A stretch of 64,000 nt of DNA from Thermoproteota archaeon. GTDB taxonomy: Archaea; Thermoproteota; Methanomethylicia; Methanomethylicales; Methanomethylicaceae. The DNA is taken from contig JARXPE010000003.1 in NCBI GenBank assembly GCA_029887795.1, positions 28,600 to 92,599 on the forward strand, given 5' to 3'. Every line of letters begins with the position of its first letter. Position 1 is the first letter of the stretch. Below are positions 11,642-26,783 of the stretch, one piece after another. The position numbers were made by a program, and so were the translations under genes. The notes under the pieces were generated by a model that was not told where the DNA came from, ran no database searches, and saw only the letters and a program-made list of their open reading frames with translations.

Positions 11642-12151
11642 TCACCCAAGCTCAAATAGACTTACTTTGGACAAATCTGCATTTATAAAATATTTGAACT
11701 TAAAGGTCTCCTTCCATTCAGGTCTATCCATCACTCCTTGGAAGCAGACACCCACCACACTATCAAGTGTACTTACAACACTCAATTTTTGTTTTAAAGC
11801 ACTTGGGTTGATCTGTGATTTTGGCATTGCCAGCCCGCCCAACAACACAACGATCTGAAAATCTTTTTCAACGACGCACTCACCTGGAGAGTACCCGAGA
11901 CCTTTCCTGTCGACCAACTCAACGATTTTTTCCGTCTCACCATTTGGAGAGAAATAAGTTCTTATTGGCATATCTCTTATGCTGTAGGTCAAAAATTCAG
12001 CGAAAGGCAGGCAGGTGTAGGGTGTCCCTACAAAAAGTAGACTTCCACTTTTGTTTAATTTTACTATGGCACTCCTAAAGCATCTACTCAGGCCTACAAG
12101 ACCTTTTTCTACCATCGTCTCCGTCTCCAACGTTCCCCCTCCTTGTATCAT
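11642..12151 (-). CDS. Hypothetical protein
   Basis: 169-aa ORF; start uncertain (internal Met MVEKGL possible). Confidence 0.35.
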   Translation of the reverse strand: MIQGGGTLETETMVEKGLVGLSRCFRSAIVKLNKSGSLLFVGTPYTCLPFAEFLTYSIRDMPIRTYFSPNGETEKIVELVDRKGLGYSPGECVVEKDFQIVVLLGGLAMPKSQINPSALKQKLSVVSTLDSVVGVCFQGVMDRPEWKETFKFKYFINADLSKVSLFELG

Positions 12152-12307
12152 AATACTAGATTGCTTAGGTATTATTAGTTAAATCACTTATGATATTCAT
12201 TTCTACATCTCTACATACCATTATTTTTTGTTAACTTTTTTTACCAAAAATGCAAAGACAAATTCCTCTTACTAGTGGAAGTCTCAAGATTTTATTTTTA
12301 CCGCCTT

Positions 12308-12664
12308 CTATTCCACTCTTCTTTCAACAACTATTCTACAACGCGTTACCAAGGCGGCAATAACTCCCAGAGCTGCCAGCCATGGTGCGAGTATGGCCCC
12401 TACAATTCCTACTGTAGCAGGTATTTCTAGGAGCGTCTTTCCTCCCTCATCCTTAACAATTATCCTTGTGACGTTGCCCTCATGTATTAGCTCTTCTACT
12501 CTTTTTATCAGCTCGTTGGCCGCTATTGAGAACTCTTCGGTAATTCTTCTTTCCAGTTTAGTTCCGCAGGCTGGGCAATATTTTGCATCCTGGGCTACTG
12601 GGGTCCCACAATTTTGGCAGTACGGCATAACCCTCGCCTGATCAATAACTCTACAGCCTGACAC
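12308..12664 (-). CDS. Zinc-ribbon protein with C-terminal DUF4342-like hydrophobic domain
   Basis: CQNCG....CPACG zinc ribbon, followed by a ...RIIVKDEGGKTLLEIPATVGIVGAILAPWLAALGVIAAL segment. Confidence 0.5.
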   Translation of the reverse strand: MSGCRVIDQARVMPYCQNCGTPVAQDAKYCPACGTKLERRITEEFSIAANELIKRVEELIHEGNVTRIIVKDEGGKTLLEIPATVGIVGAILAPWLAALGVIAALVTRCRIVVERRVE

Positions 12665-12714
12665 TTAATCTTTACCAACCGAAAAAGACAATATCTTGGA
12701 GCATATAAAACAGA

Positions 12715-13359
12715 ATGGGGAACGAATTGACGAGACTGAAAACACTTCTAACAGAACTCTCACGATACGAAATTCCAAAGGGTCCGTCCCCTGCTTTTAC
12801 CCCCGTCCATATTGTTAAGGCACTCCTCTTATTGGAGAAAGGCAGTATGGGTCGCCAATCAATGTCAAAAATGCTTGGTCTTGGAGAAGGATCAGCCCGA
12901 ACGCTTGTTAAAAAACTCACAGAGCGTGCGCTGGTCTCCGTCGACCCCGTCGGGGGCTGCAATTTGACGAATGAAGGAAGGCTTATAGTAAATGAACTTC
13001 GCCAGACAATTTTATCCTCAAAAGAGTTTACTTTAGAAGATTTTGATATAAAACTCCCCTCTTTCGCAGTTCAGATCAGGGGTCCGTCCGCATTTACTAT
13101 TCCGATCACAAAGCTCAGGGATGTTGCAGTCAGGAACGGGGCAGAGGGCATGTTGGTGTTCACTGTCAAGGACTCGAAGATATCGCTTCCGATGATAGTG
13201 GACGACGTCTCAAAAGACTATCCCAAGCTTGTATCACTGATTAAAAACTCCTTCTTGCTGGAGGATGGAGATTTCATATTCATAGGGTTCGCAGAAGACA
13301 AAAATGCTGCGGAACTTGGAACGCTTGCGGCTGCTTTATTCTGCATCCTTGAATCTTGA
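12715..13359 (+). CDS. DUF4443-like archaeal protein (putative winged-helix regulator) linked to the ABC transporter
   Basis: 214 aa; N-terminal helical/wHTH-like region. Family assignment is from memory, not from a search. Confidence 0.4.
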   Translation: MGNELTRLKTLLTELSRYEIPKGPSPAFTPVHIVKALLLLEKGSMGRQSMSKMLGLGEGSARTLVKKLTERALVSVDPVGGCNLTNEGRLIVNELRQTILSSKEFTLEDFDIKLPSFAVQIRGPSAFTIPITKLRDVAVRNGAEGMLVFTVKDSKISLPMIVDDVSKDYPKLVSLIKNSFLLEDGDFIFIGFAEDKNAAELGTLAAALFCILES

Positions 13360-13444
13360 TTTTCTTCACTCAAATCCTCAAAGATTTTTGGCGAAAATTA
13401 TAAATTTATGACACATTAAGACATTTTTGAGGGAGGTTATTGTC

Positions 13445-14428
13445 ATGAAAAAAAGTATTATAGTACTATCAATTATCCTTATTGTAGCTTTTGGTACTGT
13501 GGCGGGACTGTACGGAACTGGGTTCCTCTCGCCCGCACCAAAAGTAAAGGTCCGTATAGGTTATCTTACAGGAGACTTACACCATCTGGCTCTTCATGTC
13601 GCAGTTGCGAGAAATTATTTTGCGCAGTACGGCCTTGAATATGAATTATATGAGTACATAAACGGACCAACCCTAATGCAGCATTTTGTGGTCGGGGAGC
13701 TTGATTTTGCATATGTTGGCACCCCTCCAGCATTGACGGCAAGGGCCAGCGGAATATCCTCCAATGCAACACACCTGCCCGTCGTAATAGGTTCTGGGAA
13801 TTTAGAGGGGTCTGCCTTGGTGGTGAACCCTGCCATTATTAAGAATGTAGGCGACCTAGAAAACAAAAAAATTGGGACGCCTGGCACAGGAACAATTCAA
13901 GACGTCCTAATCTCAACCTACGCAAAGAACAATAACCTAACAATCACAAAATATCCTGGGCGGATCTCCGATCTGCCGCTGCAGTATGGAAGGGGCGAGA
14001 TCGACGGATTTATTGGTTGGGAGCCCTACCCCTCGATTGCCGCTTATCAATACAACGCATCAATACTGCTCACCTCCCATGAAATCATGCCAAATCACCA
14101 ATGCTGTGTTCTTGTGGTCTCTGACAAGTTCCTCGCAGCACATCCCGAAATAGTGGATAAAATGGTCGCAATACACAAGGCTTCAATTGACTTTATCAAC
14201 ACCAACCCTGCCGAGGCTAAACAGCTCGCGATGAACATCACCAAACTACCAATGCCCGTGATAGAGCTTGCATTCTCACACATGTCCTTCTCAAAATCAG
14301 TAAACGTTGAGAGCATTAGAGCCTTCCTAGTCGACATGATAAGGCTCGGCATAATCAAAAATATAGATGTAAATCAGGTGGATAACTTCATAAACGGCTT
14401 TATAAATACCAAATACGTTGCTGGTTAA
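13445..14428 (+). CDS. ABC transporter substrate-binding protein, NitT/TauT (SsuA/NMT1-like) family
   Basis: Signal/anchor helix followed by an SsuA-like periplasmic-binding fold. ATG at 13445 sits behind a GAGGGAGG ribosome-binding site. Confidence 0.8.
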   Translation: MKKSIIVLSIILIVAFGTVAGLYGTGFLSPAPKVKVRIGYLTGDLHHLALHVAVARNYFAQYGLEYELYEYINGPTLMQHFVVGELDFAYVGTPPALTARASGISSNATHLPVVIGSGNLEGSALVVNPAIIKNVGDLENKKIGTPGTGTIQDVLISTYAKNNNLTITKYPGRISDLPLQYGRGEIDGFIGWEPYPSIAAYQYNASILLTSHEIMPNHQCCVLVVSDKFLAAHPEIVDKMVAIHKASIDFINTNPAEAKQLAMNITKLPMPVIELAFSHMSFSKSVNVESIRAFLVDMIRLGIIKNIDVNQVDNFINGFINTKYVAG

Positions 14429-14439
14429 ATGTGATCCCA

Positions 14440-15225
14440 ATGAAAAAACAATATCGGCGCCTGCGGTCTTTGCTCTATGCATTATCATCAGTTATCATAT
14501 TCTTTATTTTTTGGGAACTGATAGCCCTCTATTCTCCGTCTCCCTATCTTCCAGATCCTTACTCGGTTCTGAGGGCTTTCATCACAATCCTGACAGTTGG
14601 AGATGTTGACGGCTATACACTTACTTGGCATGCAGTTGTGAGTCTTGAGCGTGTCTTGCTAGGATTCGCTGTTGGCACTGCAACAGGCATTCCTATTGGA
14701 ATGCTACTGGGGATAAAACCCACACTAAAGGGCGCAGTAACGCCCATCATCGAGCCGCTCCGATTCATTCCACCAATAGCGTGGATCCCGCTTTCGATCG
14801 TTCTACTCATAGGCTTGTGGAGATATATCTTTTTAATATGGATCGGGGTTTTCTTTCCCGTACTATTGGATACCATAGCCGGTGTAAAAAGAACCTCAAT
14901 AACACTGATACAGATGGCGAGGACATTTGGAGCGGACAATAAAAAAATCATCACAAAGATCGTATTTCCGAGCTCCCTTCCTGAGATCATGAACGGGCTT
15001 AGGGTGGGTCTTGGGGTCGGCTGGATGTGCATAGTGGCTGCTGAGATGATAGGCGGCGAGCCTGTTGGTCTCGGAAGGCTGATCCTAAAATATGCAAACC
15101 TGCTCCAAATTGATGTGGTAATAGTGGGCATGATAACAATTGGTCTGATAGGTCTCGCGCTGAATTATCTCATTCTACTATTAGAGAAGAGGATGTTTAG
15201 GTGGAGGGTTGAGATTAGGGCGTAG
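14440..15225 (+). CDS. ABC transporter permease, NitT/TauT (SsuC-like) family
   Basis: Six transmembrane segments and an EAA-like loop; immediately follows the binding protein. Confidence 0.8.
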   Translation: MKKQYRRLRSLLYALSSVIIFFIFWELIALYSPSPYLPDPYSVLRAFITILTVGDVDGYTLTWHAVVSLERVLLGFAVGTATGIPIGMLLGIKPTLKGAVTPIIEPLRFIPPIAWIPLSIVLLIGLWRYIFLIWIGVFFPVLLDTIAGVKRTSITLIQMARTFGADNKKIITKIVFPSSLPEIMNGLRVGLGVGWMCIVAAEMIGGEPVGLGRLILKYANLLQIDVVIVGMITIGLIGLALNYLILLLEKRMFRWRVEIRA

Positions 15226-15996
15226 GTGTGCACATTGAAAAAAGCGATCTTGCTCGAATCGGTATCAAAAAAATACGAGGTCGGCTCCAGTTCCCTAGAA
15301 GTTATTAAAGACCTCACATTTGACGTAAACGAAAATGAATTTGTCTGCATCGTCGGACCATCGGGCTGTGGTAAGACCACGCTGCTCAGAATCGTCTCGG
15401 GGCTTGAACCTCCCTCTTCTGGCAGGGTTCTCGTTTTTGACACCCCTCCAGACCCCAGAAGGCAGAAGTTCGGTGTGATCTTCCAAGAAGACTCTTTGCT
15501 TCCATGGAGGACTGTTCTTGGGAACGTCAAATTTGGGCTAGAGCTTCAGGGCTATAAAGAGACTGAACATGAAAAGATCGCCAGAACTTATATCGAGTTG
15601 GTGGGTCTGCAGGGGTTTGAAAACTACTACCCGCACCAAATATCGGGTGGTATGAAGAAGAGGGTTGCAATAGCTAGGGCTCTAGCTATAAACCCTGATC
15701 TCATACTTATGGATGAGCCCTTTGCGGATCTAGATGCACAGACGAGGTCTCTCATGCAAAGGGAGCTACTGAATGTATGGTCAAAACTAAATAAGACTGT
15801 CCTGTTTATAACTCACAATGTCGAGGAAGCGGTCTTTCTTGCTCAAAGAGTCTTTGTTCTGACCAAGCGCCCCTCGAAGGTTAAGCAAATAATCAACATC
15901 GATCTTCCCTATCCAAGAGCTAGGCTTAGCCCTCCCTTCATATCATACCGTGAGCGCATATTGACCGCCTTCCATGAGGAATTGGAGGGTATCTGA
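15226..15996 (+). CDS. ABC transporter ATP-binding protein, NitT/TauT (SsuB-like) family
   Basis: Walker [10 protein letters not shown], signature LSGGMKKRVAIARAL, Walker B LILMDEPF; GTG start abuts the permease stop. Confidence 0.85.
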   Translation: MCTLKKAILLESVSKKYEVGSSSLEVIKDLTFDVNENEFVCIVGPSGCGKTTLLRIVSGLEPPSSGRVLVFDTPPDPRRQKFGVIFQEDSLLPWRTVLGNVKFGLELQGYKETEHEKIARTYIELVGLQGFENYYPHQISGGMKKRVAIARALAINPDLILMDEPFADLDAQTRSLMQRELLNVWSKLNKTVLFITHNVEEAVFLAQRVFVLTKRPSKVKQIINIDLPYPRARLSPPFISYRERILTAFHEELEGI

Positions 15997-15997
15997 A

Positions 15998-16546
15998 ATG
16001 GAAAAAGATAAAGATCTAACTATTCGTGACGAGCTGATAAATGCTGCTTTGACTTCCAACGAAGCGTTCTCGTCAACCCTTAAATCTATAATGCGGCGTA
16101 TGGATATCACTGCTAAGGATCTGAGTGAAGGCTCTGGCGTCCCCCTCAGCACCATAAATAAGATACTTTCTGAATGCAGAGACCTCCGCCTATCAACACT
16201 CAGAGATATTCTGAGATATCTCCATTCTCTTGAAACACCTCCTGCAGACATTATTATAGGAGTAATCGCTGCAAGGCCGTCTCTCGACGCGATTTCCAAG
16301 CATCAGCTATTGGCAAAAGGTAAACGCGTGATAATAAAAGAATACCCTGCCTTAACAATAGAAGATGCCATCATAAGCGCGATTAAGGCAGAGCGAGAGC
16401 ATGTGAACGGTCTAGTCTGCGCCTCTATAGTAGCCAGTATAATAGAAAAGTTTGTGCGAATCCCAATCGCCACAATAAAGGTCGAGGAATCAAACATTTT
16501 AGACTCCGTACACCTACTTGTGGAAAAAATAACCTCTACAAGCTAG
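15998..16546 (+). CDS. XRE-family helix-turn-helix transcriptional regulator with an uncharacterised C-terminal domain
   Basis: HTH segment ITAKDLSEGSGVPLSTINKILSECRDLRLSTLRDILRYL. ATG at 15998 behind GGAGGG; the track's ATG at 15974 lies inside the ABC ATPase gene. Confidence 0.55.
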   Translation: MEKDKDLTIRDELINAALTSNEAFSSTLKSIMRRMDITAKDLSEGSGVPLSTINKILSECRDLRLSTLRDILRYLHSLETPPADIIIGVIAARPSLDAISKHQLLAKGKRVIIKEYPALTIEDAIISAIKAEREHVNGLVCASIVASIIEKFVRIPIATIKVEESNILDSVHLLVEKITSTS

Positions 16547-16589
16547 TCTCTAGTCTATAAATCTTTTTTATTAATTATTAATAAAAAAT

Positions 16590-16660
16590 AAAAATATAAA
16601 GTCTCAAAATTACTTTAATATAATTTATTTTAATTTCAGGATTGAGGGCAAGATTTTTAA
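16590..16660 (+). promoter_or_regulatory. Candidate archaeal BRE/TATA promoter of the mcrBGA operon
   Basis: Very AT-rich 160-bp spacer with TATA-like boxes (aaaaatataaag, ctttaatataattta) 50-110 nt upstream of the mcrB ATG. GAGAGG ribosome-binding site at 16695-16700. Confidence 0.3.
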
Positions 16661-16707
16661 CCTCCAGTTATCTATTCTCACGTAAGAAATCTACAGAGAG
16701 GAGTTTT

Positions 16708-18042
16708 ATGCCAAAATATCCGGACAAAGTGAACTTGTACGACGACCGCGGAAAACTTTTTGAGACAAACGTTCCAGTTGAGGCTCTGAGCCCACTGAAA
16801 AACACTGCTATACAAAAAATCATCGCTTACGTAAAGCAATGCGTTGCGGTTAACTTGGAAGGTGTGGAAAAGGCGCTAGCTACAGGAGAAGTCGGCGGAA
16901 AATGGTGCATCATTAGAGGTAGATCTTTGAAACTCGATCTGGTAAAGAACGCAGGCAGCGTGGCGGACTCTTTGAAGAAGTGCTTGCAAGTAGATCCCGA
17001 TGACGACACAGAAGTAAAGGTTCTAAAGGGTGGAAAGCACCTCCTCGTAAAGGTTCCAGCAAAGAGGTTAAACGCTGGAGTTGAGTACACTACCGGAGCA
17101 ACAGCAGTGGCTGCTGCCCTCTGCTGCACAATAATTGAGAACTTTAATGTGAACATATGGGATGCAGACCTAGTACACGCTGCCGTCTGGGGAAGGTATC
17201 CGCAGACCATGGAGATGCTGGGTGGAAATGTGTCTTCACTATTGGCAGTGCCACAACAAAATGAGGGTATGGGCTACGCCCTTAGGAACATACCATGTGC
17301 ACACATCGCTCTCATCGCAAAGAAGAACGCTATGAATGCTGCCGCCCTCTCATCGATCTTGGAACAGACTGCGATGTTCGAGATGGGTGATGCCATTGGT
17401 AGCTTCGAGAGGTTCCACCTCTTGGGTCTAGCCTACCAGGGATTGAATGCTGACAACATAGTCTACGACCTTGTGAAAGAGAATGCAAAAACTGGAACAC
17501 TCGGAGATGTTGTCATTTCAACAGTGAAGAGAGCCCTATCGGATGGTGTCATCAAACCCTTAAAGAAGACACCGTCTGGATACACGCTCTACACCACAAG
17601 CGATCTCAATAAGTGGAATGCCTATGCTGCTGCAGGTCTATTGGCTGGAACAATGATCACTTGCGGTGCTGCCAGATCTATGCAACACGCTCCATCAGTC
17701 TTCATATACTTTAACGACCTTTTGGAGAGGGAGACTGGACTTCCAGGTGTGGACTTTGGTAGAGTCACAGGTACAGGCGTGGAAATGTCATTCTTCAGTC
17801 ACTCAATCTATGGTGGAGGAAATCCTGCCGTATTCCACGGAAACCACATAGTGACTCGACACAGCAAGGGCTTCACCATTCCATGCGTTGCTGCTGCCGT
17901 GGCGCTTGATGCTGGAACCACCATATACACCCCAGAGAGGATCAGCGGCGTAGTTGGTGAGGTCCTGAGCGAGGTACCTGAGCTTAGAGAATCTTTACGC
18001 TATGTGAATGAGGCCGCGGTCTCAATAAAAGGAGGAGTCTAA
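16708..18042 (+). CDS. mcrB: Methyl-coenzyme M reductase beta subunit
   Basis: [15 protein letters not shown]..., ...ALRNI..., [49 protein letters not shown] are hallmark McrB blocks. Start at the ATG at 16708 behind a ribosome-binding site; the track start at 16642 is an over-extension. Confidence 0.95.
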
Positions 18043-18044
18043 AA

Positions 18045-18821
18045 ATGGTAGAATATAAGCCCCAATATTACCCTGGAGGATCAAATGTAGCCGCCAATAG
18101 GCGGAAATACATCGATCCCAACTACAAGCTAAGAAAGCTAAGAACAATAAGCGACGATGACTTAGTTCGATTAATGGGTCATAGGGTCCCAGGCGAGGCT
18201 TACAAGAGCGTCCACCCGCCACTGGAAGAACTTGGCGAGCCTACATGCCCAATCAGGGAGATTGTAGAACCTACGCCCGGGGCAAAAGCCGGTGACAGGA
18301 TTCGTTACATACAATTCACAGACTCTGTATACTTTGCCCCATTGACTCCCTACATGAGAGCTTGGATGGGTCATATGCGATACCGTGGAGTGGACATTGG
18401 TGTTCTATCGGGGCGTGTCCCTCTTGAGGCCAGAGAGCGAGATCTTGAGAAGGTTGCTAAGGAACTCGTTGAGACCGAGATCTTCGATCCGGCGAGGGTC
18501 GGGATCAGGGGTGCCACAGTTCACGGTCATGCTTTGAGGCTCGACGAGAACGGTCTCATGTTCGATGCCCTGCGCAGGTTCCAGTATGATAAGAACAAGG
18601 GCGAGGTCGTCTATGTTAAGGACCAGGTTGGAGTTCCGCTCGACAGACCGATATACGTAGGAAAACCCACCCCTGAAGAGGAGCTGAGAAAAATAACCAG
18701 CCAGTTCAGAGTTGACGGAGAAGCCTTCAGGAATGACAAGGAACTGATTGAGTTCGTTCAGAGGATTCACATGCTCCGAACGGAAGCAGGTTTCGATCCT
18801 AACAAGGTGAAAGATCTATAG
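18045..18821 (+). CDS. mcrG: Methyl-coenzyme M reductase gamma subunit
   Basis: [55 protein letters not shown] are McrG blocks; starts 2 nt after the mcrB stop. Confidence 0.95.
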
Positions 18822-18832
18822 GAGGAATTGTA

Positions 18833-20503
18833 ATGAGCGAAGAGAAGAAGATGTTCCTAGAAGCGCTCAGGAGAAAGTTCAAGGAGTCTCCTGAAGAGAA
18901 ACAAACAAAATTCTACATATATGACGGATGGAAGCAGTCAAAGAGAAAGAGGGAGTTCGTAGAAGCTGCTCAGAAAATAGCCAAAGAGAGGACCGTCCCC
19001 TTCTACAACCCTGACCTCCACCTCGGCGGCATCCCATTAGGGCAGAGAGTCTTGATGCCTTACCGTCTATCGGGTACAGACATCTATTGCGAGGGTGATG
19101 ACCTTCACTTCATAAACAACGCCGCCATGCAGCAGATGTGGCATGACATAAGGCGGACTGTGATCGTCGGACTCGATGCTGCGCACACGGTCCTACAGAA
19201 GAGGCTCGGCAAAGAGGTCACCCCTGAAACCGTGAACCACTATCTAGAGGTACTTAATCACGCGCTGCCTGGTGCGGCTGTAGTTCAGGAGCACATGGTC
19301 GAGACACACCCTGGATTGGTCTCTGACAGCTATGTCAAGGTATTCACAGGAGACGACGAGCTCGCGGACGAGATCGACGATAGATTTCTTATCGACATAA
19401 ACAAGGAGTTCCCTGCAGAGCACGCGGCACAGCTAAAGGCTGCCATCGGAAAACGCATTTACCAGGTATGCCGCATGCCAACACTCGTGGCGATGACCTG
19501 CGACGGAGGTACAATGTCAAGATGGGCGGCTATGCAGATCTCAATGTCAATGATAAATGCATACAAACTTATGGCTGGAGAGGCTGCGGTGGGAGAATTC
19601 GCCTTCGCAGCAAAGCACGCAGAAGTCATAGAGATGGGCACTCTTATGCCTTGGAGGCGAGCAAGAGGTCCCAACGAGCCCGGAGGAATTCCATTGGGCT
19701 ATATGGCGGATATCTGCCAGGCCTCGAGGGTCAAGCCCGAGGATCCAGTCTGGGTCGCCTTGGAAGCCATTTCCATGGCAGCTGTCCTATACGACCAGTT
19801 CTGGTTCGGAAGCTACATGTCTGGTGGCGTCGGGTTCACGCAATATGCAACTTGCACCTACACTGACAACATCCTTGATGACTTCTGCTATTATGGCGCC
19901 GAGTACGTTAAAAAGAAGTACGGCGGTTTCGCAAAAGTCAAGCCGAGCTGGGATGTGATAAACGATGTTGCCACGGAGGTCACATTATACGGTCTGGAGC
20001 AATATGAAAGGTACCCTGCGCTGATGGAGACTCACTTCGGAGGATCCCAGAGGGCTGCCGTAGTAGCAGCTGGTGCTGGCGTCTCCGTGTCACTGGTGAC
20101 CGGTCATTCCACTGCAGGAATCAACGGTTGGTACCTCAGCCAGCTACTCCACAAGGAAGAGATGGGTCGACTTGGCTTCTACGGCTACGACTGCCAGGAC
20201 CAATGCGGATCAGCCAACAGCTTCTCATGGAGGAGCGACGAAGGTCTACCCTTCAACCTGAGGGGAGTGAACTACCCCAACTATGCTCTCAATGTCGGAC
20301 ACCAGTCAGCATACTGCGGTATAGTCTCCGCCGCTCACGGTGGGAGAGGCGACGCTTGGACAACAAACCCGTTGATAAAAGTTGCCTTTGCAGATAAGGA
20401 TCTGAAATTTGACTTCACGCACCCGAGGCTATGCTTCGGAAAAGGCGCTCTCAGGGAGTTCATGCCAGCTGGCGAGCGCGATCTAATAATCCCAAGCCAC
20501 TAA
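18833..20503 (+). CDS. mcrA: Methyl-coenzyme M reductase alpha subunit
   Basis: [73 protein letters not shown] are McrA blocks. GGAGG ribosome-binding site precedes the ATG. Confidence 0.95.
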
Positions 20504-20531
20504 ACCCCCTCTTTTTTATTGTGTTTTTAAA

Positions 20532-21119
20532 ATGACCGGATATTCATCGCTTAAGAGAATTTTTGAAATTATTGTCGACCTATCCAATTTAACGCCAGAG
20601 CTTGCCAAAGAAAAGTACTCTGAATTTCCATCACTTGCGAGTCATATTGCAATTTTATTTTCAAGAGACTATTTACACGATGTATTATCAAGGTTGGAAC
20701 TTCAACTGAGAATTGTGGAGAGCTATGATCCGCCCATCAGACCTGCGCTGGATCCTTACTCTTCTACACAACTTGGCATCTTCAGCAAGAACTTCTCTGA
20801 CTGGGAAATTGGACGCCTACTCAATTATCCAGCGTGCTGCATCGATTCGTTTTCCGAAGAACTCCGTTATGGATTAGACTCGAAACATTTAGAGGAACTG
20901 AACACTATAAAAGAAGAGGTTGTATTCGTCACAACTGCGGGATTTGTGCCCCACAGCATATTTTGTAAAGAAGCGTCAGAGAGCGCACTTATTGGCCTCC
21001 TGAAGTTAGACGCGTTGAAAGTATTAAATGATCTGGAGAAGGAGCTTGCACGCAGGCTCCCTCATGCTCACCCGGAATACCAAAAACACTATTATGACAT
21101 GCTAATCCCAGATGTCTAA
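20532..21119 (+). CDS. Conserved archaeal protein with a YPACCIDSF Cys-pair motif (DUF483-like, tentative); probable fourth gene of the mcr operon
   Basis: 195 aa, same strand, 28 nt after the mcrA stop. Family name is from memory only. Confidence 0.45.
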   Translation: MTGYSSLKRIFEIIVDLSNLTPELAKEKYSEFPSLASHIAILFSRDYLHDVLSRLELQLRIVESYDPPIRPALDPYSSTQLGIFSKNFSDWEIGRLLNYPACCIDSFSEELRYGLDSKHLEELNTIKEEVVFVTTAGFVPHSIFCKEASESALIGLLKLDALKVLNDLEKELARRLPHAHPEYQKHYYDMLIPDV

Positions 21120-21171
21120 ATAAAGGTCAGAAATTAAATTGAATGAACATACAAAAAAAGAATTTTAAAAC

Positions 21172-21945
21172 TCAAGATCGAGTAGCTTGCATTCTCCTAA
21201 TTTCCGATATTATTTTGGGTATATCTCTGAGAGAACTAACAATATAATCCACTTCAGGCATTAGATCTTCCGACGCGTCGCAAGACTCTCTTTTTACAAG
21301 CACAGAGAGGTCCGCTTCCCTCATAGCTAGGAGGTCGTTAACATCATTTCCCACCATTACCACAAGTCCATAAAATCTTCTGAGACTCTTTACAAAATTC
21401 ATCTTTTCTTTGGGTGACGCATCGGCAAGAACAAACCTCTTGTCTATCCCTAAAAACTTGGCGCACTTCAAGGTTGCCTCTCGACAGTTTCCTGTGGCAA
21501 GGAATACGTCATCGTCAGAATCTCTGAGCTTCTTAATGACTTCTTTAACATCATCGTAAAGTTTCCCTCCCAAACCCACAGCATGTGTTGGGGTCCCGTC
21601 TTTATTCAGTATTACCGCTGCACATGTACCAATCTCTGAACCACAGTGAGTTTTCGCCTCAAATATTACCCTGTTTAATGCTTCTAAAATGTCATTTTGC
21701 CTCAAGATCTCATCGCTGACCTTTGGGGAAGTCGGCAAGGGTGAACAAATTACCTTTCCGATCTTAATGTTTTTTTGTTTTTTTGCGTTCGGGTCGCCCT
21801 TCACATTCACGAGGTAGCCACCAATCTCTATAACAAATTTCAAAGTATTTACATGGAAAAGAAGTTCCTTTCTTTGAAGATCATATATTACTCTACAAGG
21901 CCTTAGTATAGTTCCCGATTTGTCAAATACTATTGCTGCCCTCAA
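21172..21945 (-). CDS. HAD-superfamily hydrolase resembling the catalytic domain of P-type ATPases (soluble P-type ATPase-like phosphatase)
   Basis: Motif I FDKSGT; motif VMVGNDVNDLLAMREADLSV equivalent to the P-type ATPase GDGxNDxP hinge. Confidence 0.65.
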   Translation of the reverse strand: MRAAIVFDKSGTILRPCRVIYDLQRKELLFHVNTLKFVIEIGGYLVNVKGDPNAKKQKNIKIGKVICSPLPTSPKVSDEILRQNDILEALNRVIFEAKTHCGSEIGTCAAVILNKDGTPTHAVGLGGKLYDDVKEVIKKLRDSDDDVFLATGNCREATLKCAKFLGIDKRFVLADASPKEKMNFVKSLRRFYGLVVMVGNDVNDLLAMREADLSVLVKRESCDASEDLMPEVDYIVSSLRDIPKIISEIRRMQATRS

Positions 21946-21958
21946 AAGTTAGCCCTCT

Positions 21959-22270
21959 TCATCCAGCACCGCACACGTTCCCACTGGTATCTATTTTGCC
22001 CTCGTCTCTGATTTCAGGTGTTTCGGATTTCTCTTTTTCAACCTCTTTTATTTTCTCTTGTTCCACTTCTTTTTCCATCTCTTGCCTAGGCTCTTTTACA
22101 AAATCCTCTTCAACCGTTTCTAGAAAGTCCTCATCGTAAAATAGTCCTGTTGAATCCAACTTAGCCCAGACTTTGCCATCCATTTCTCTCAATTCAACAA
22201 TTCTGCCGAGGGTACCAGTCCTTTTGTATATAACTGATGCCCCTTCCCTGAGCACACTTTGCCCCTCCAC
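21959..22270 (-). CDS. Small protein with an acidic EKE-rich tail (KOW-like N-terminus), hypothetical
   Basis: 103 aa; N-terminal beta-rich ...GTLGRIVELREMDGKVWAKLDSTGLFYDEDFLE, then a low-complexity acidic C-terminus. Confidence 0.35.
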   Translation of the reverse strand: MEGQSVLREGASVIYKRTGTLGRIVELREMDGKVWAKLDSTGLFYDEDFLETVEEDFVKEPRQEMEKEVEQEKIKEVEKEKSETPEIRDEGKIDTSGNVCGAG

Positions 22271-22325
22271 AAATATTTAATAAATTCTTATGCATTTTCT
22301 TTCCTATTAATCTGAGGGGTCCCAC

Positions 22326-23255
22326 TTGGAAGACCTTAAAGAGATTGTGAGCAAGACAAGATCGTACAAAGGGCTATCAAGAAAGGCCCAGATTGGGGAG
22401 ATTGTTAATATACTTGGCGAGGTTGACTATGACGACGCTGGAATATTGAATGTGGAAGGACTCAATATTGTGGTTTCTACAGACGGCATAGCAGAGGATC
22501 TAGTCAAGTCTGATCCTTGGTTTGCTGGGTATTATTCTGTCCTTGTTAATGTCAATGATGTGGTGATAAAGGGTGCTAGACCTCTTGGATATGTGAACGT
22601 TATATCTGGACCTAGAGAGATTAGGAACAAGATGGCAGAAGGCATAAAGGCTGGACTTGAAAAGTACAACGTCAAACTGCTCAAGGGTCATACACATCCG
22701 GACTCTTCATACGCGGCAATTGACGCCGCGGTGGTTGGAATAGCAAAAAAGGTCGTAAGGGGAACCGACGCCCGTCCTGGCGACGAAATTGTGATGGCCA
22801 TCGACCTTTCAGGATCGTTTGGTCTAAAGGGCTGGGTTAAATGCTTTGATAGTACAGTTAAAAAGTCATCTAAACAAGTTCAAGATATGATCTCTGCCAT
22901 AATCTCTGTCATAGAAACTGGAAAAGTGCATTGTTCTAGGGACATAAGTGCCCCTGGAATATTAGGAAGTCTGGCAATGTTATGTGAGGCTAGTGGTGTT
23001 GGAGCAGAAGTCTCTCTGGACAAGATCCCTGCCCCAAAAGGCTCTTCGCTTTCTGAGTGGTTGACTTCATACCCTGCAATGGGATTTATATTTGGCTCCT
23101 CTACTTCCAATGTCTTTGAGACCTTGAAGAATTCTGGTTTCTCTGTGGAATCTGTAGGTCGCTTCACAGCCGACAAAAAAATAATCGTGTCTATGGATCA
23201 TAAAAAAGAAATCTTCATGGATCTAGCGAGGGAGTCTGTCTTCGGATTGAGATAG
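22326..23255 (+). CDS. AIR-synthase-related (PurM/HypE/ThiL-like) protein; candidate methanogenesis marker protein 2
   Basis: VVSTDGIAEDL and downstream glycine-rich segments characteristic of the PurM-like N and C domains; TTG start; lies in the MCR island. Confidence 0.55.
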   Translation: MEDLKEIVSKTRSYKGLSRKAQIGEIVNILGEVDYDDAGILNVEGLNIVVSTDGIAEDLVKSDPWFAGYYSVLVNVNDVVIKGARPLGYVNVISGPREIRNKMAEGIKAGLEKYNVKLLKGHTHPDSSYAAIDAAVVGIAKKVVRGTDARPGDEIVMAIDLSGSFGLKGWVKCFDSTVKKSSKQVQDMISAIISVIETGKVHCSRDISAPGILGSLAMLCEASGVGAEVSLDKIPAPKGSSLSEWLTSYPAMGFIFGSSTSNVFETLKNSGFSVESVGRFTADKKIIVSMDHKKEIFMDLARESVFGLR

Positions 23256-24851
23256 TTCCGCGATCTCCTCTGGGGAGAAGGAGTTCACGACTTCACATAC
23301 GGGGCCCCTCATTGCTATCTTCCCGTCTCTGAGCAGTAGCGCTTCGTCACAGGTATTCATGACAAACCCCATATCGTGCGAGACTATTAAAAAAGTCTGC
23401 CGGAGCTCGTGCCTTGCATTCTTTATTGATTTGGAAACATCCTGCTGCGTTATTGGATCCATTGTGCCGGTAGGCTCGTCTAATATTACTAGGATCGGCT
23501 CTCTTATTAGGACTTGGGCAAGCGCGACCCTATGCCTCTCGCCCTCGCTCAACTCATCAGGGTACTTATTCAAAATAGGCTCTATCAGACTTTCTTGGAA
23601 ACCAGCCGCTCTCAAGACCATGGCTGCCTTGAATTTGGCAAATTCGTCTGGCAATTCAAGCCCGATGGCATCAGTAAGGTTCTCTTGCACAGTCCTGTGT
23701 GGATAAAGCGAGTACTCTTGGTGAAGCAAACCGATGTATGGCGTCGCTCTGCCGCGCCCCATAGGCCCTGGTTGTAACATGTCCACCCATTCATCACCTA
23801 TCCTCAGCCAGACCCTGCCAGATGTCGGTTCCGTAAGACCTGCAATGATCCTCGAAAGCGTCGTCTTCCCTGCCCCACTCATCCCTACAATGCCAAATAT
23901 CTGCCCCTCCCTAACCTCAAAGGAGACGTCATCTAGCGCTCTAACAACCCCTTTGTCTATGGAGAAGTAATGCTTCTTCAGCCCCTCTACCCTGAGTATT
24001 GTATCTCCCGCCTCTGCGGGCACCTCTTTTGATATGGTTTCTGCCTCTGATAGGAACTCCCTCACGATTTCCTTCGGGTCTCCTATGACCTTCACACTTC
24101 CGTTCTCTAACAGTATTGCCCTCTCACTCAAAGCTTCTACTGCCTCGGGCAGGTGTGATGTGACCAGCATGGTTATGTTTTTACCCTTGACCTCTTCGTT
24201 CAATATCCTGTATACCATCCTTGCACTCAGCGGATCGAGCGTCCCCGTGGGTTCGTCTGCCAGCAACAGTATGGGTCTTATTGCCAACTGCCTGCCTAGT
24301 ACGACCCTCTGCTTCTCACCACCACTGAGATCCCTCGCCGCATGGAGTAGCCTATGTTCCAGGCCCATCCTCTTGGCAAGCTCGAGCGCCTTGCGCCCAA
24401 CATCGGCATTCTCGAGTTCAGCTTTCTCTAACGCCTCAACAAAATTCTCGTACACGGTGAGGCTGCCGTAAAGAGCAAAGGTTCTTTGAAACATTATTGC
24501 TATCCTATTTTTAATGTCTTTGGCTGACTCCCTATCCTCCCAGAAGTCTACCTCAATAAGTTCCATCTTTCCACAACATCTAGGACAAACCTTCCCTGCC
24601 CTGCTAGGCCCCTCAACGAAGCCACATTCCTTGCATGATGCTACTCGGTATATCACTTTACCTGCCGTGGGAGCATATTCTCCAATCCCTTTAAGCATTG
24701 AGAGAAGCACACTCTTACCAGAACCGCTCTTCCCAAGAATCCCGACTCTTTCGCCTTCGCGAATTACTAGTGACACATCCTTGAGAACGTAATGCCCGTT
24801 AAACTTTTTGGAAACGCCATCTACGATGATCAATGCCTCCCTCATCGTCAT
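23223..24851 (-). CDS. atwA: MCR system component A2 (AtwA-like): soluble tandem ABC ATPase with a Zn-ribbon insert
   Basis: Two full ABC cassettes (GKSGSGKS/LSGGEKQRV/LLLADEPT and GMSGAGKTT/LSEGERHRVALAQVL/ILDEPTG) with no transmembrane domain. CKECG...CPRCCG insert in cassette 1. Next to ycaO-tfuA. Confidence 0.7.
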   Translation of the reverse strand: MTMREALIIVDGVSKKFNGHYVLKDVSLVIREGERVGILGKSGSGKSVLLSMLKGIGEYAPTAGKVIYRVASCKECGFVEGPSRAGKVCPRCCGKMELIEVDFWEDRESAKDIKNRIAIMFQRTFALYGSLTVYENFVEALEKAELENADVGRKALELAKRMGLEHRLLHAARDLSGGEKQRVVLGRQLAIRPILLLADEPTGTLDPLSARMVYRILNEEVKGKNITMLVTSHLPEAVEALSERAILLENGSVKVIGDPKEIVREFLSEAETISKEVPAEAGDTILRVEGLKKHYFSIDKGVVRALDDVSFEVREGQIFGIVGMSGAGKTTLSRIIAGLTEPTSGRVWLRIGDEWVDMLQPGPMGRGRATPYIGLLHQEYSLYPHRTVQENLTDAIGLELPDEFAKFKAAMVLRAAGFQESLIEPILNKYPDELSEGERHRVALAQVLIREPILVILDEPTGTMDPITQQDVSKSIKNARHELRQTFLIVSHDMGFVMNTCDEALLLRDGKIAMRGPVCEVVNSFSPEEIAELSQSEDRLPR

Positions 24852-24892
24852 GCACCAAAGAACACGATTATTAATGAGATGTGATATTTAAG

Positions 24893-25552
24893 TCATACAC
24901 TCCTATTGATTGTCGTCAGTTCTCTGATCTTCTTTAAAACTTCAATCGCATCAATCCGCTTTTGATCGACTCTCTCTCTTTTCAACAATTCTAGAATGAA
25001 CTTTGCCCTTTCTCTGCCTAATTTGTCTATGGCATTCTGAATTATCCTACTGTAATTTCTGAGGTGAAAGGGGGTCTCCTTAGCACTCTCTATTATGATC
25101 TCTCCGTCCGCCTTACTGATCATGCCTCTTGATATCAGTAGCTCCAAAGTAGCTCTTATATTGACCAAAGGCTCGGAGAGTGGTTGATATGTGTTTGGAT
25201 GGAATACAACCGCCACTTCGTCATCAGCGCTAATAACACCTTGTTTATACCATCTGTAAATCTTCCCGACTCCGATCATGCCGTAGAGATCCAACTCGCA
25301 AGCCCTCAGAGCTCCTATACTAGATCCGCCGACCACCTTTACTCCCTTTTTAAGGGCATAAAGTATCTCACGATGCGAAACTGCTGTTTTCTGGTAGAAG
25401 ACGCCATCCACAAGCCCTATTATCTCGAACCCCTCATCAACAGCTCCCGCCACATCTCCCCTCCCAGCAGGTGGCCTGTACTCAACATCGTCCAAAATTT
25501 TTTCCGCCTCTTCTACAGGCAGACTTGGTCCTAAAAACACAACAACTTTCAT
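24893..25552 (-). CDS. tfuA: TfuA-like protein (partner of YcaO for McrA thioglycine formation)
   Basis: MKVVVFLGPSLPVEEAE...PPAGRGDV...GSSIGALRA is the TfuA signature. Start moved to the ATG at 25552 (GAAGGT ribosome-binding site), 25 nt after the ycaO stop; the track start at 25618 overlaps ycaO. Confidence 0.8.
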   Translation of the reverse strand: MKVVVFLGPSLPVEEAEKILDDVEYRPPAGRGDVAGAVDEGFEIIGLVDGVFYQKTAVSHREILYALKKGVKVVGGSSIGALRACELDLYGMIGVGKIYRWYKQGVISADDEVAVVFHPNTYQPLSEPLVNIRATLELLISRGMISKADGEIIIESAKETPFHLRNYSRIIQNAIDKLGRERAKFILELLKRERVDQKRIDAIEVLKKIRELTTINRSV

Positions 25553-25577
25553 AACCTTCTTCACACTTTCGATTTTT

Positions 25578-26783
25578 TCAACATTGACTTTTCTTGATCT
25601 TTTGGAGCGCCCTAGCACCTATTCTGTCTTTGTCCAGTGCATAAACCTCTAAACCTGGGACTATGACCCGCACGGCGGGAATGTTGACTTCATTTCTCGT
25701 CAAATCCACAATTATGACCTCGTTCAACCCCGCCTTTTTAAGCTTATTTATGATGTGGTTTATGTCCTCCAAAACATCATCACTATCATAGCCTTCAAGT
25801 TCGCTTATGCTTACCCGATCACCGGAACCCTCAAACCACTTCTTATTCAACCTCTTCATGCGCTCATATCCTATCCTTCTCGCAAAAACTGCCTTGTAGG
25901 TGTCCTCCCTAGTCCCATGAATCGTTGTAAGCCTGCTCTGGGCAGCCTCAGTCAGCGCCCTAACCAGGGCGATCTCTGGCACAAGGTGCGTCCCAACTCC
26001 AAGCGAAAGAAGCGCTGGATCTTTAGTCATCTCATCATCTATCGCAACCGATATTGTGGGTATCCCTATGTCTGATGTTATGTCTTTTATATAGACTTGC
26101 ACCGAAGCCTCCCTGAATCTTCTTATAAGTTCCTCTGCCAAGTCACAACCCTCGACCAACAAATCTCTACCCTTAGTAACTCCCAACTCAAATAGAGACC
26201 AAGCATCCCTCTCTATGACCTCCAAGAGCCCATGCAGAATGGCTTCCTCTATCTCATTCCCTACTGCCAATCCATTGGTATTGGTTCTGAAGAGCTGGTT
26301 TTCCCCCCTGTAGGGATGGAATACTGCCTCTGCTGGAACTAGGACTGCTTTCCCATGAGTCAGCGAGTGCCCATGTACCCACTCAAGATTTTCACTATGA
26401 GAATAGCGCCTTAGTTTAGGAAGATTCAGGGCAAATGGATCGAGCACGCAGTATGACTCGGATAGTGATTCATAACTGCCTTTTATTATTCCAATTTCTC
26501 TTGGCTCTCCTGAGAACCTTTCTATTCCCTCCATTATCGCCGAGATCTTTGCCTCCTCGGGAACATGACCCTTACCGGTGTATACTGTTATCGCACCTTC
26601 TGCAGCAAGGGGTCGCATTGCCGTGAAAACTGGTATCCCTATCCTGTCCAGTCCTGTTATGTCCGCCACTCTAGTTATTCCCGCCTTACTGTAAACTTTT
26701 TCTAGCAGCTCTAAAGTTTCCATCAGAGGCTTAGCTCGATGGGTGCCCTCTTTGTGACGCTTTTTTATGGAACGAAGTATCAT
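25578..26783 (-). CDS. ycaO: YcaO-domain protein (methanogenesis marker 1; McrA glycine thioamidation)
   Basis: ITRVADITGLDRIGIPVF and downstream ATP-binding YcaO blocks; 401 aa; directly upstream of tfuA. Confidence 0.85.
   Translation of the reverse strand: MILRSIKKRHKEGTHRAKPLMETLELLEKVYSKAGITRVADITGLDRIGIPVFTAMRPLAAEGAITVYTGKGHVPEEAKISAIMEGIERFSGEPREIGIIKGSYESLSESYCVLDPFALNLPKLRRYSHSENLEWVHGHSLTHGKAVLVPAEAVFHPYRGENQLFRTNTNGLAVGNEIEEAILHGLLEVIERDAWSLFELGVTKGRDLLVEGCDLAEELIRRFREASVQVYIKDITSDIGIPTISVAIDDEMTKDPALLSLGVGTHLVPEIALVRALTEAAQSRLTTIHGTREDTYKAVFARRIGYERMKRLNKKWFEGSGDRVSISELEGYDSDDVLEDINHIINKLKKAGLNEVIIVDLTRNEVNIPAVRVIVPGLEVYALDKDRIGARALQKIKKSQC

Follow-up and report, generated by a model that had tools for sequence, protein, structure and literature searches.

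The stretch of DNA analysed here (the window) comprises 64,000 nucleotides of a Methanomethylicaceae genome (Thermoproteota archaeon, assembly GCA_029887795.1, contig JARXPE010000003.1, positions 28,600 to 92,599 of the forward strand), and carries at 15998-16546 a gene for a helix-turn-helix (HTH) protein that lies directly in front of mcrBGA, the genes for methyl-coenzyme M reductase (MCR). The gene is the fourth and last one of an SsuA-type ATP-binding cassette (ABC) transporter operon (ssuA-ssuC-ssuB-regulator), and its product is probably a one-component regulator of coenzyme M (CoM) or sulfonate supply, in which an HTH of the XRE type is joined to a truncated PrpR_N-like domain. CoM is the obligatory methyl carrier of methanogenesis, and the CoM uptake system is the entry route of the inhibitor 2-bromoethanesulfonate (BES). 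The protein belongs to a widespread, uncharacterised archaeal family, whose conserved partner in most lineages is an uptake transporter of the SsuABC type, its place being taken by cysteate synthase in Methanothrix; adjacency to mcrBGA is a feature of a gene island in Methanomethylicia and not evidence for mcr as the target. It is thus more likely that we are dealing with a regulator of CoM supply than with a dedicated regulator of the methane-forming enzyme, as a first-pass annotation had proposed.

Which genes does this family accompany outside the Methanomethylicia? A family profile searched against 1.84 billion representatives at E<=1e-3 retrieved 193 proteins (50%-identity representatives), mostly 165-195 aa long and aligned end to end, and the family as a whole amounts to at least 1472 90%-identity clusters. 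Members occur in Methanosarcinales (Methanosarcina, Methanolobus, Methanococcoides, Methanohalophilus, Methanoperedens, the anaerobic methanotrophs ANME-2/3, and Methanothrix), in Methanomicrobiales, Methanocellales and Methanomassiliicoccales, and also in Thermoplasmata and Hadesarchaea. A scan of GTDB with one genome per species gave 417 relatives, the best 80 loci of which were examined for neighbours by comparing the neighbouring proteins of the window, and then cysteate synthase, with all fetched loci. In the 12 loci from Methanomethylicia both the ABC transporter and mcr stand beside the HTH gene. Among the 68 loci from other lineages, an ssu-type ABC operon lies within 3 kb of the HTH gene in 33, a cysteate synthase gene lies beside it in 17 (Methanothrix/Methanotrichaceae), neither is found in 18, and mcr is near it in none. 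The family-wide partner is therefore coenzyme M or sulfonate supply and not mcr, and the idea of a dedicated mcr regulator finds no support in a gene that shares its operon with an ABC transporter and whose relatives outside the class, with about 40% identity over the full length, adjoin mcr at none of the 68 loci examined.

Where an ABC operon is the neighbour (33 loci), the HTH gene is mostly divergent from the gene for the substrate-binding protein (SBP), at a distance of 150-900 bp; in Methanothrix (17 loci) the divergent partner is the cysteate synthase gene, with about 190 bp between the two in most cases. The cysteate synthase was identified at one of these loci (L066) by TIGR03844, with 598 bits against a cut-off of 325, and at the other Methanothrix loci by tblastn with 61-68% identity. 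Separate look-ups revealed the same ABC linkage in Methanoregula, in Methanomassiliicoccales, in one Thermoplasmata genome and in Hadesarchaea. The protein of the window belongs with these relatives, in that it resembles homologues adjoining ssuABC from end to end (42% identity over 173 aa, residues 7-178, E 2e-41, with the ssuA-linked Methanosarcinaceae homologue at L043:6001-6522) and is itself linked to SsuA-type ABC genes immediately upstream. Some of the neighbourhoods hold further genes. In Methanotrichaceae (L066, 3076-5801) the cysteate synthase gene is followed on the same strand by a gene for an ABC-type ATPase-like protein and by one for a CobW/HypB-like GTPase; conservation of at least the ATPase-like gene is suggested by nine further Methanothrix loci, in which tblastn places matches of the window ATPase at an identical offset. 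In Hadesarchaea (L097/L098, 3580-4929) the ssu-type ABC operon is separated from the HTH homologue by a gene for a protein of 449 aa that has no Pfam match.

How firmly can the transporter that accompanies the family be tied to CoM? A handle is provided by Methanosarcina, where four near-identical loci (L091-L094) show the order ATPase, permease, SBP and divergent HTH gene. A guide RNA published for M. acetivorans ssuC (PMC10750270) agrees with the permease gene there in 19 of its 23 positions and has no other match in any of the 12.5-kb loci; the estimated chance expectation is about 3e-4. The deletion coordinates published in the same work likewise give the correct set of removed genes among ssuB, ssuC and ssuA. 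Because of the guide RNA match and the deletion coordinates, the Methanosarcina ABC operon beside the homologue can be equated with ssuABC. In the literature, ssuABC is described as the CoM transporter, the link being sensitivity to the CoM analogue BES (PMC10658910; PMC12068725), and supplementary transcriptome tables for M. acetivorans list MA0063 as the ATPase, MA0064 as the permease and MA0065 as the SBP (PMC12068725). In the same supplement, a CoM-starved delta-MMP16 mutant shows log2 changes of +2.19 for ssuA/MA0065, +1.48 for ssuC/MA0064 and +0.62 for MA0067, which, judging by gene order and the orthologous loci, would be the family member. The response to CoM starvation reported in this study comprises ssuA, ssuC, the cysteate synthase gene (cs), comDE and hdrABC; its passages on regulation name no regulator of this response, nor does the literature searched. 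At the level of gene neighbourhood, two independent links thus tie the family to one and the same cofactor, through genes of CoM uptake in several lineages and through one of CoM biosynthesis in Methanothrix.

In the window, the transporter genes lie on the forward strand directly upstream of the regulator gene. The first of them (13445-14428; a called gene) encodes an SsuA-family SBP of 327 aa counted from its ATG, with matches to Pfam NMT1_2 and NMT1 and to TIGR01728 (SsuA_fam), and is preceded by a Shine-Dalgarno (SD) sequence, GAGGGAGG, at 13429-13437. The second (14431-15225; BPD_transp_1) encodes an SsuC-like permease, 36-40% identical to that of the ssu operon in Methanosarcinaceae, and the third (15226-15996; ABC_tran) an SsuB-like ATPase with 46-53% identity to its counterpart there. 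The stop codon of the ATPase gene is separated from the ATG of the regulator gene by a single nucleotide, and by 4-10 nt between the called genes in relatives. The most economical reading of this arrangement would be two transcription units, ssuA-ssuC-ssuB-regulator and mcrBGA. A candidate promoter/operator of the first unit is situated at 13392-13424, where a block CGAAAATTATAAAT (13392-13405), resembling a B recognition element (BRE) and TATA box, is followed by two GACA cores (13410-13414 and 13420-13424) spaced by 10 nt; a block GCGAAAATTATAAATTTATGAYAYATTAAGACA is conserved in the closest species (L012-L015), and the segment may, to judge from its letters, act as an operator. Directly upstream of the transporter operon lies a gene for a second putative regulator (12715-13359, forward strand), which combines a PH0730-like/CggR_N winged-helix N-domain with DUF4443. 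By tblastn, this gene occupies the position in Methanomethylicia loci only and does not stand beside HTH homologues of other lineages.

The assignment of the SBP deserves some caution, though. Its top NCBIfam match is TIGR01728 with 123 bits, below the cut-off of 163.5, and its best sequence matches in the PDB are the SsuA proteins 3e4r and 2x26, with E of about 1e-5. For an SBP adjoining a Methanosarcinaceae homologue the best NCBIfam match is also SsuA_fam, with 165.5 bits and thus above the cut-off.

The regulator itself is encoded by an open reading frame (ORF) on the forward strand running from ATG 15998 to TAG 16546, with the SD GGAGGG 7 nt upstream of the start; an identical product of 182 aa has been called as a gene in GCA_038885815.1 (a metagenome-assembled genome of Ca. 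Methanomethylicaceae), and the closest database homologue, at 98% identity, likewise stems from Methanomethylicaceae. The protein consists of an N-terminal helix (residues 9-19), an XRE/Cro-type HTH (21-79) and an alpha/beta PrpR_N-like half-domain (85-181). The cro/C1-type HTH perceived in the first-pass annotation is borne out by Pfam HTH_26 at residues 28-76 (29.1 bits against a cut-off of 22), which places it within PF13443/PF01381; HTH_3 falls narrowly below its threshold (22.7 bits against 23) and is matched by 32 of 34 diverse family members in individual scans. The N-terminal helical bundle can be superimposed on solved XRE proteins. In an AlphaFold2 model computed with 34 homologues (mean predicted local distance difference test score, pLDDT, of 80), the helical HTH of residues 9-79 is followed by a beta-alpha-beta lobe at 85-181. 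A search of the PDB by sequence with the family profile gave nothing significant, only weak HTH matches.

Is the C-terminal part a novel domain, as had been supposed? Its roughly 100 residues, taken from this protein alone, match no Pfam family above threshold, so that the impression of a segment without a recognised motif was correct to that extent; but there is a sub-threshold match to PrpR_N (PF06506; residues 120-174, with 19.0 bits where the cut-off is 29.1 and an E-value of 1.2e-3), and it is backed by fold comparison and by family-wide searches, in which 24 of the 34 diverse members scanned singly matched PF06506 at E<=0.1, the best with E 8.7e-8. The lobe resembles the solved N-domains of PrpR-type proteins in fold, with about 92 of its residues aligning to structures of 186-187 residues, and the match covers positions 13-67 of the 167 in the profile, which falls short of a complete two-lobed domain. 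The C-terminal domain is therefore a remote, truncated relative of PrpR_N, about half of the two-lobed fold, and not a fold without relatives, and the match indicates remote homology rather than membership of PrpR_N proper. In the 182 residues Pfam reveals neither an AAA+ nor a sigma-54 interaction domain. In the most diverse family alignment K55, Y116, A131, C141 and P156 are conserved in at least 90% of members, and C141 is invariant in both narrower alignments as well; the conservation of Y116, A131, C141 and P156 suggests that this domain is more than a scaffold. The protein was also considered as an XRE antitoxin. This reading was rejected: matches to HigA/HipB are faint, there is no toxin-like neighbour, and the chromosomal context is conserved.

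If the regulator governs the transporter operon, where might it bind? Phylogenetic footprinting of the divergent intergenic regions beside homologues showed that BRE/TATA blocks are conserved for both genes, and brought out several candidate sites: a palindrome ATATGTCCT-N4-AGGAYAT just past the TATA box of the HTH gene in Methanosarcinaceae, a palindrome ATATGTCTAGACATAT in Methanosarcina, and, in Methanothrix, AGGGACAAAnTTTGTCCT upstream of the BRE/TATA of cs together with TTGTCC between the TATA box and the ATG of the HTH gene. In three locus groups the pentamer TGTCC, counted together with its complement GGACA, is more frequent than in shuffled sequences, with 13 occurrences where 1.6 are expected, 7 where 1.0 is, and 21 where 3.6 are. 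In the window, the 85-nt promoter region of the transporter contains three TGTC/GACA cores and the 161-nt spacer before mcrB none. The family alignments also show conservation of S51, T52 and K55, which are positions of the recognition helix, so that a partly shared DNA specificity is plausible. Several observations nevertheless call for restraint: the enrichment comes from sequences that are related within each group, such that shuffles overstate its significance; the exact pentamer is absent from the promoters of the window, where the 4-nt core alone is present; and the arrangement of half-sites varies between lineages. Taken together, the motifs are suggestive as candidate operators and not proof.

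A mechanism can be sketched on this basis, and what we infer in it comprises DNA binding itself, the identity of the effector and the choice between repression and activation. A dimer of the regulator would bind half-sites of the TGTC(C) type at the transporter operon, either overlapping its BRE/TATA and transcription start or flanking them. With its own gene inside that operon, it would control its own expression too, and in the divergent arrangements it would do so by binding at its own promoter. The ligand sensed by the C-terminal PrpR_N-like lobe, perhaps with the help of C141, would be CoM or else a sulfonate or thiol related to it, and scarcity of the cofactor would raise its uptake or, elsewhere, adjust its biosynthesis. 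The position of the Methanothrix site upstream of the BRE/TATA of cs would suit activation, and autorepression would be in keeping with sites that cover the start of transcription of the HTH gene.

What speaks against such a role in CoM or sulfonate supply? The SBP of the window stays below the cut-off of SsuA_fam and shares only about 30% identity with SsuA of Methanosarcinaceae, and the substrate of the transporter is therefore to be regarded as putative. Eighteen of the 68 loci outside Methanomethylicia have neither partner nearby, and among five of these inspected no common neighbour emerged (among the genes near them are those for MarC, a pterin-binding protein, an XPB helicase, an AIRS-like protein, a HAD protein, and DUF7502 accompanied by a geranylgeranyl-reductase-like protein). 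The literature search found no experiment on any family member and no paper on MA0067. As to the host lineage, the literature searched yielded nothing on whether CoM is synthesised by Methanomethylicia themselves.

A first alternative is that the protein responds to sulfur or sulfonates in general, with an effector other than CoM (for example sulfite, cysteate, taurine, isethionate or the thiol redox state), or that it is an XRE protein that senses nothing and uses its C-terminal lobe solely for oligomerisation. Because the same linkage of HTH and ABC genes is seen in Hadesarchaea and in one Thermoplasmata genome, the effector may indeed be a general sulfonate or sulfur signal, and a domain that represents just half of the PrpR_N fold could serve dimerisation alone. 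In Methanomassiliicoccales (L008/L009, 5644-7522) a thioredoxin gene and a thioredoxin-reductase-like gene are followed, 4 nt later, by the HTH homologue, which is convergent with the ssu-type ABC operon; this context may hint that the conserved cysteine is connected with thiols or redox state. However, the second, independent link to the CoM-specific cysteate synthase in the 17 Methanothrix loci speaks against an effector unrelated to CoM, as do the description of the linked Methanosarcina transporter as CoM-specific and the induction of ssuA and ssuC by CoM starvation (PMC12068725), and the strong conservation of residues in the C-terminal domain does not favour a mere oligomerisation device. 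We consider this alternative unlikely.

The remaining alternatives bring mcr back into the picture, and the question is then what the genomic position of the regulator gene can tell. The regulator lies directly upstream of mcrBGA in all 12 GTDB species loci of Methanomethylicia (11 scored automatically; L018 was counted although its contig ends in mcrB) and in L001-L006 besides, so the conservation in related genomes that the first-pass annotation had wished to see verified does exist. It exists, however, within a lineage in which about 20 kb are collinear throughout: Methanosuratincola verstraetei, M. petrocarbonis and other Methanomethylicia share the order DUF4443 regulator, ABC transporter, HTH gene, mcrBGA, DUF483, HAD, DUF2098, marker 2 and component A2, and the conserved position next to mcr therefore says little about function.

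The spacer between the two genes bears directly on this point. It extends over 161 nt (16547-16707) from the stop codon of the regulator gene to the ATG of mcrB on the same strand, where the first-pass annotation had given 160 bp. The start of mcrB is ATG 16708, which is preceded by the SD GAGAGGAG and from which MCR_beta_N aligns from residue 6; a start at TTG 16642, given by a mechanical ORF, was rejected on these same grounds. The view that the spacer holds the mcr promoter is likely correct, in that a BRE/TATA-like block GGGCAAGATTTTTAAC at about 16643-16660, some 50 nt upstream of the mcrB ATG, has the architecture expected of an archaeal promoter and is the likely promoter of mcrBGA. Both this block, which aligns with GGCAATGCTTTAATATT in Methanosuratincola, and the SD are conserved in an alignment of 14 distinct Methanomethylicia spacers. 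Upstream of it, 18 nt past the stop codon of the regulator gene, 16564-16588 combines a T6 run with a perfect 12-1-12 A/T palindrome (TTTTTTATTAAT T ATTAATAAAAAA), whose length was matched by just 6 of 2000 dinucleotide shuffles. The palindrome is poorly conserved, being only partly kept even in the nearest relatives, and terminator or insulator function consequently fits better than a conserved operator; probably it terminates or insulates the transporter-regulator operon, an operator role being also possible. In Methanosuratincola (L001/L017/L018) an imperfect, GC-containing inverted repeat, AACCTG-N9-CAGGGTT, is found about 15-40 nt past the stop codon of the HTH gene. What is conserved between the regulator gene and the mcrB promoter is thus the position of a symmetrical element and not its sequence. 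Rfam revealed no RNA families in 12000-21500.

Could the regulator then serve both operons? A CoM-sensing protein that controls the transporter operon together with mcrBGA would couple the synthesis of MCR to the availability of its cofactor, and this would accord with the CoM-linked context of the family, with the class-wide position of the gene between ssu-like genes and mcr, and with its inclusion in an island of MCR maturation genes (component A2, marker 2, TfuA and YcaO). Yet no motif common to the transporter and mcrB promoters was found beyond BRE/TATA, and the genes that PMC12068725 highlights as responsive to CoM starvation in M. acetivorans do not include mcr, which makes a dual role rather improbable; direct control of mcr by the regulator is possible but unsupported. 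Least convincing of all, and very unlikely in our judgement, is a dedicated mcr regulator that binds the spacer (for instance at the 12-1-12 palindrome) to control mcrBGA in Methanomethylicia, since its two assets, the same-strand adjacency to mcrBGA in all Methanomethylicia loci examined and the statistically unusual palindrome, are offset by the confinement of this adjacency to one class, in which the region of about 20 kb is syntenic as a whole, by the want of mcr at all 68 homologous loci examined outside it, by the close translational coupling of the gene to the ABC ATPase gene and the T-run that follows the regulator gene, by the poor conservation of the palindrome even among close relatives and its replacement with a different inverted repeat in Methanosuratincola, and by the lack of TGTC/GACA cores in the spacer.

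The ssu-like operon and its regulator are embedded in what may be called the MCR island of Methanomethylicia, together with genes for DUF483, marker 2, component A2, TfuA and YcaO. Downstream of the regulator follow mcrB (16708-18042), mcrG (18045-18821) and mcrA (18833-20503), all on the forward strand, canonical, and above the cut-offs of their Pfam families and NCBIfam equivalogs; neither mcrC nor mcrD is found between the subunit genes. A DUF483 gene (20532-21119, forward strand) begins 28 nt past mcrA, and its position is conserved in Methanomethylicia. The MCR-associated gene cluster occupies 21172-26783 and is composed of genes for a HAD hydrolase (21172-21945, reverse strand), a DUF2098 protein (21959-22270, reverse), a methanogenesis marker 2-like AIRS protein (22326-23255, forward; TIGR03267 with 250.6 bits, below the cut-off of 365), component A2/AtwA (23223-24851, reverse; 766 bits), TfuA (ORF 24893-25618, reverse) and YcaO (25578-26783, reverse), the Pfam calls for the last two being mapped from L095. 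TfuA and YcaO form a pair implicated in the formation of thioglycine in McrA.

How does the regulator compare with known systems? Its closest counterpart is the ssu-linked homologue of Methanosarcinales (presumably MA0067 in M. acetivorans), which has the same full-length architecture and the same linkage to an SsuA-type ABC transporter; there, the HTH gene is divergent from ssuA, whereas in the window it closes the transporter operon and stands next to mcrBGA. The sigma-54 activators that supply the PrpR_N prototypes (PrpR, PDB 2pju; the NtrC-family protein 2q5c), whose profile is matched by the family members mentioned above, carry the domain N-terminal to an AAA+ sigma-54 module, while the window regulator carries about half of it C-terminal to an XRE HTH. 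XRE/Cro-C1 proteins such as ClgR, HipB and the controller proteins C.AhdI and C.BclI of restriction-modification systems consist of the HTH alone (about 70-95 aa) or have other partner domains, and none has a PrpR_N-like lobe. LacI, by design, may be regarded as an analogue, for it too joins an HTH to a small-molecule-binding Rossmann-like fold; LacI/GalR proteins, however, possess a two-lobed sensor of about 270 aa with the fold of periplasmic binding proteins and a LacI-type HTH, in contrast to the single lobe of about 95 aa and the XRE-type HTH found here. In bacteria, sulfonate utilisation encoded by ssuEADCB is regulated by Cbl and CysB, both LysR-type, and by the ROK-type SsuR (E. coli, Corynebacterium). 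These would be functional analogues of the window regulator without being homologous to it, and neither LysR nor ROK domains were found in it by Pfam or NCBIfam.

What, finally, is the significance of these findings? An over-interpretation is corrected, in that a gene adjacent to mcr is not necessarily a regulator of mcr, and an unusual domain design is documented, in which an XRE HTH is fused to half of the PrpR_N sensor fold. It is conceivable, and we offer it tentatively as a conjecture that we would not yet wager on, that the MA0067-like family constitutes the missing CoM sensor of methanogens and alkane-oxidising archaea, its half-domain with the conserved cysteine reading free CoM (or the heterodisulfide CoM-S-S-CoB) and controlling ssuABC as well as cs/comDE, and that in Methanomethylicia it might tie MCR expression to the supply of the cofactor. 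On comparative evidence, the family is the prime candidate for a CoM-responsive regulator of methanogens, and one that is testable in the tractable Methanosarcina.

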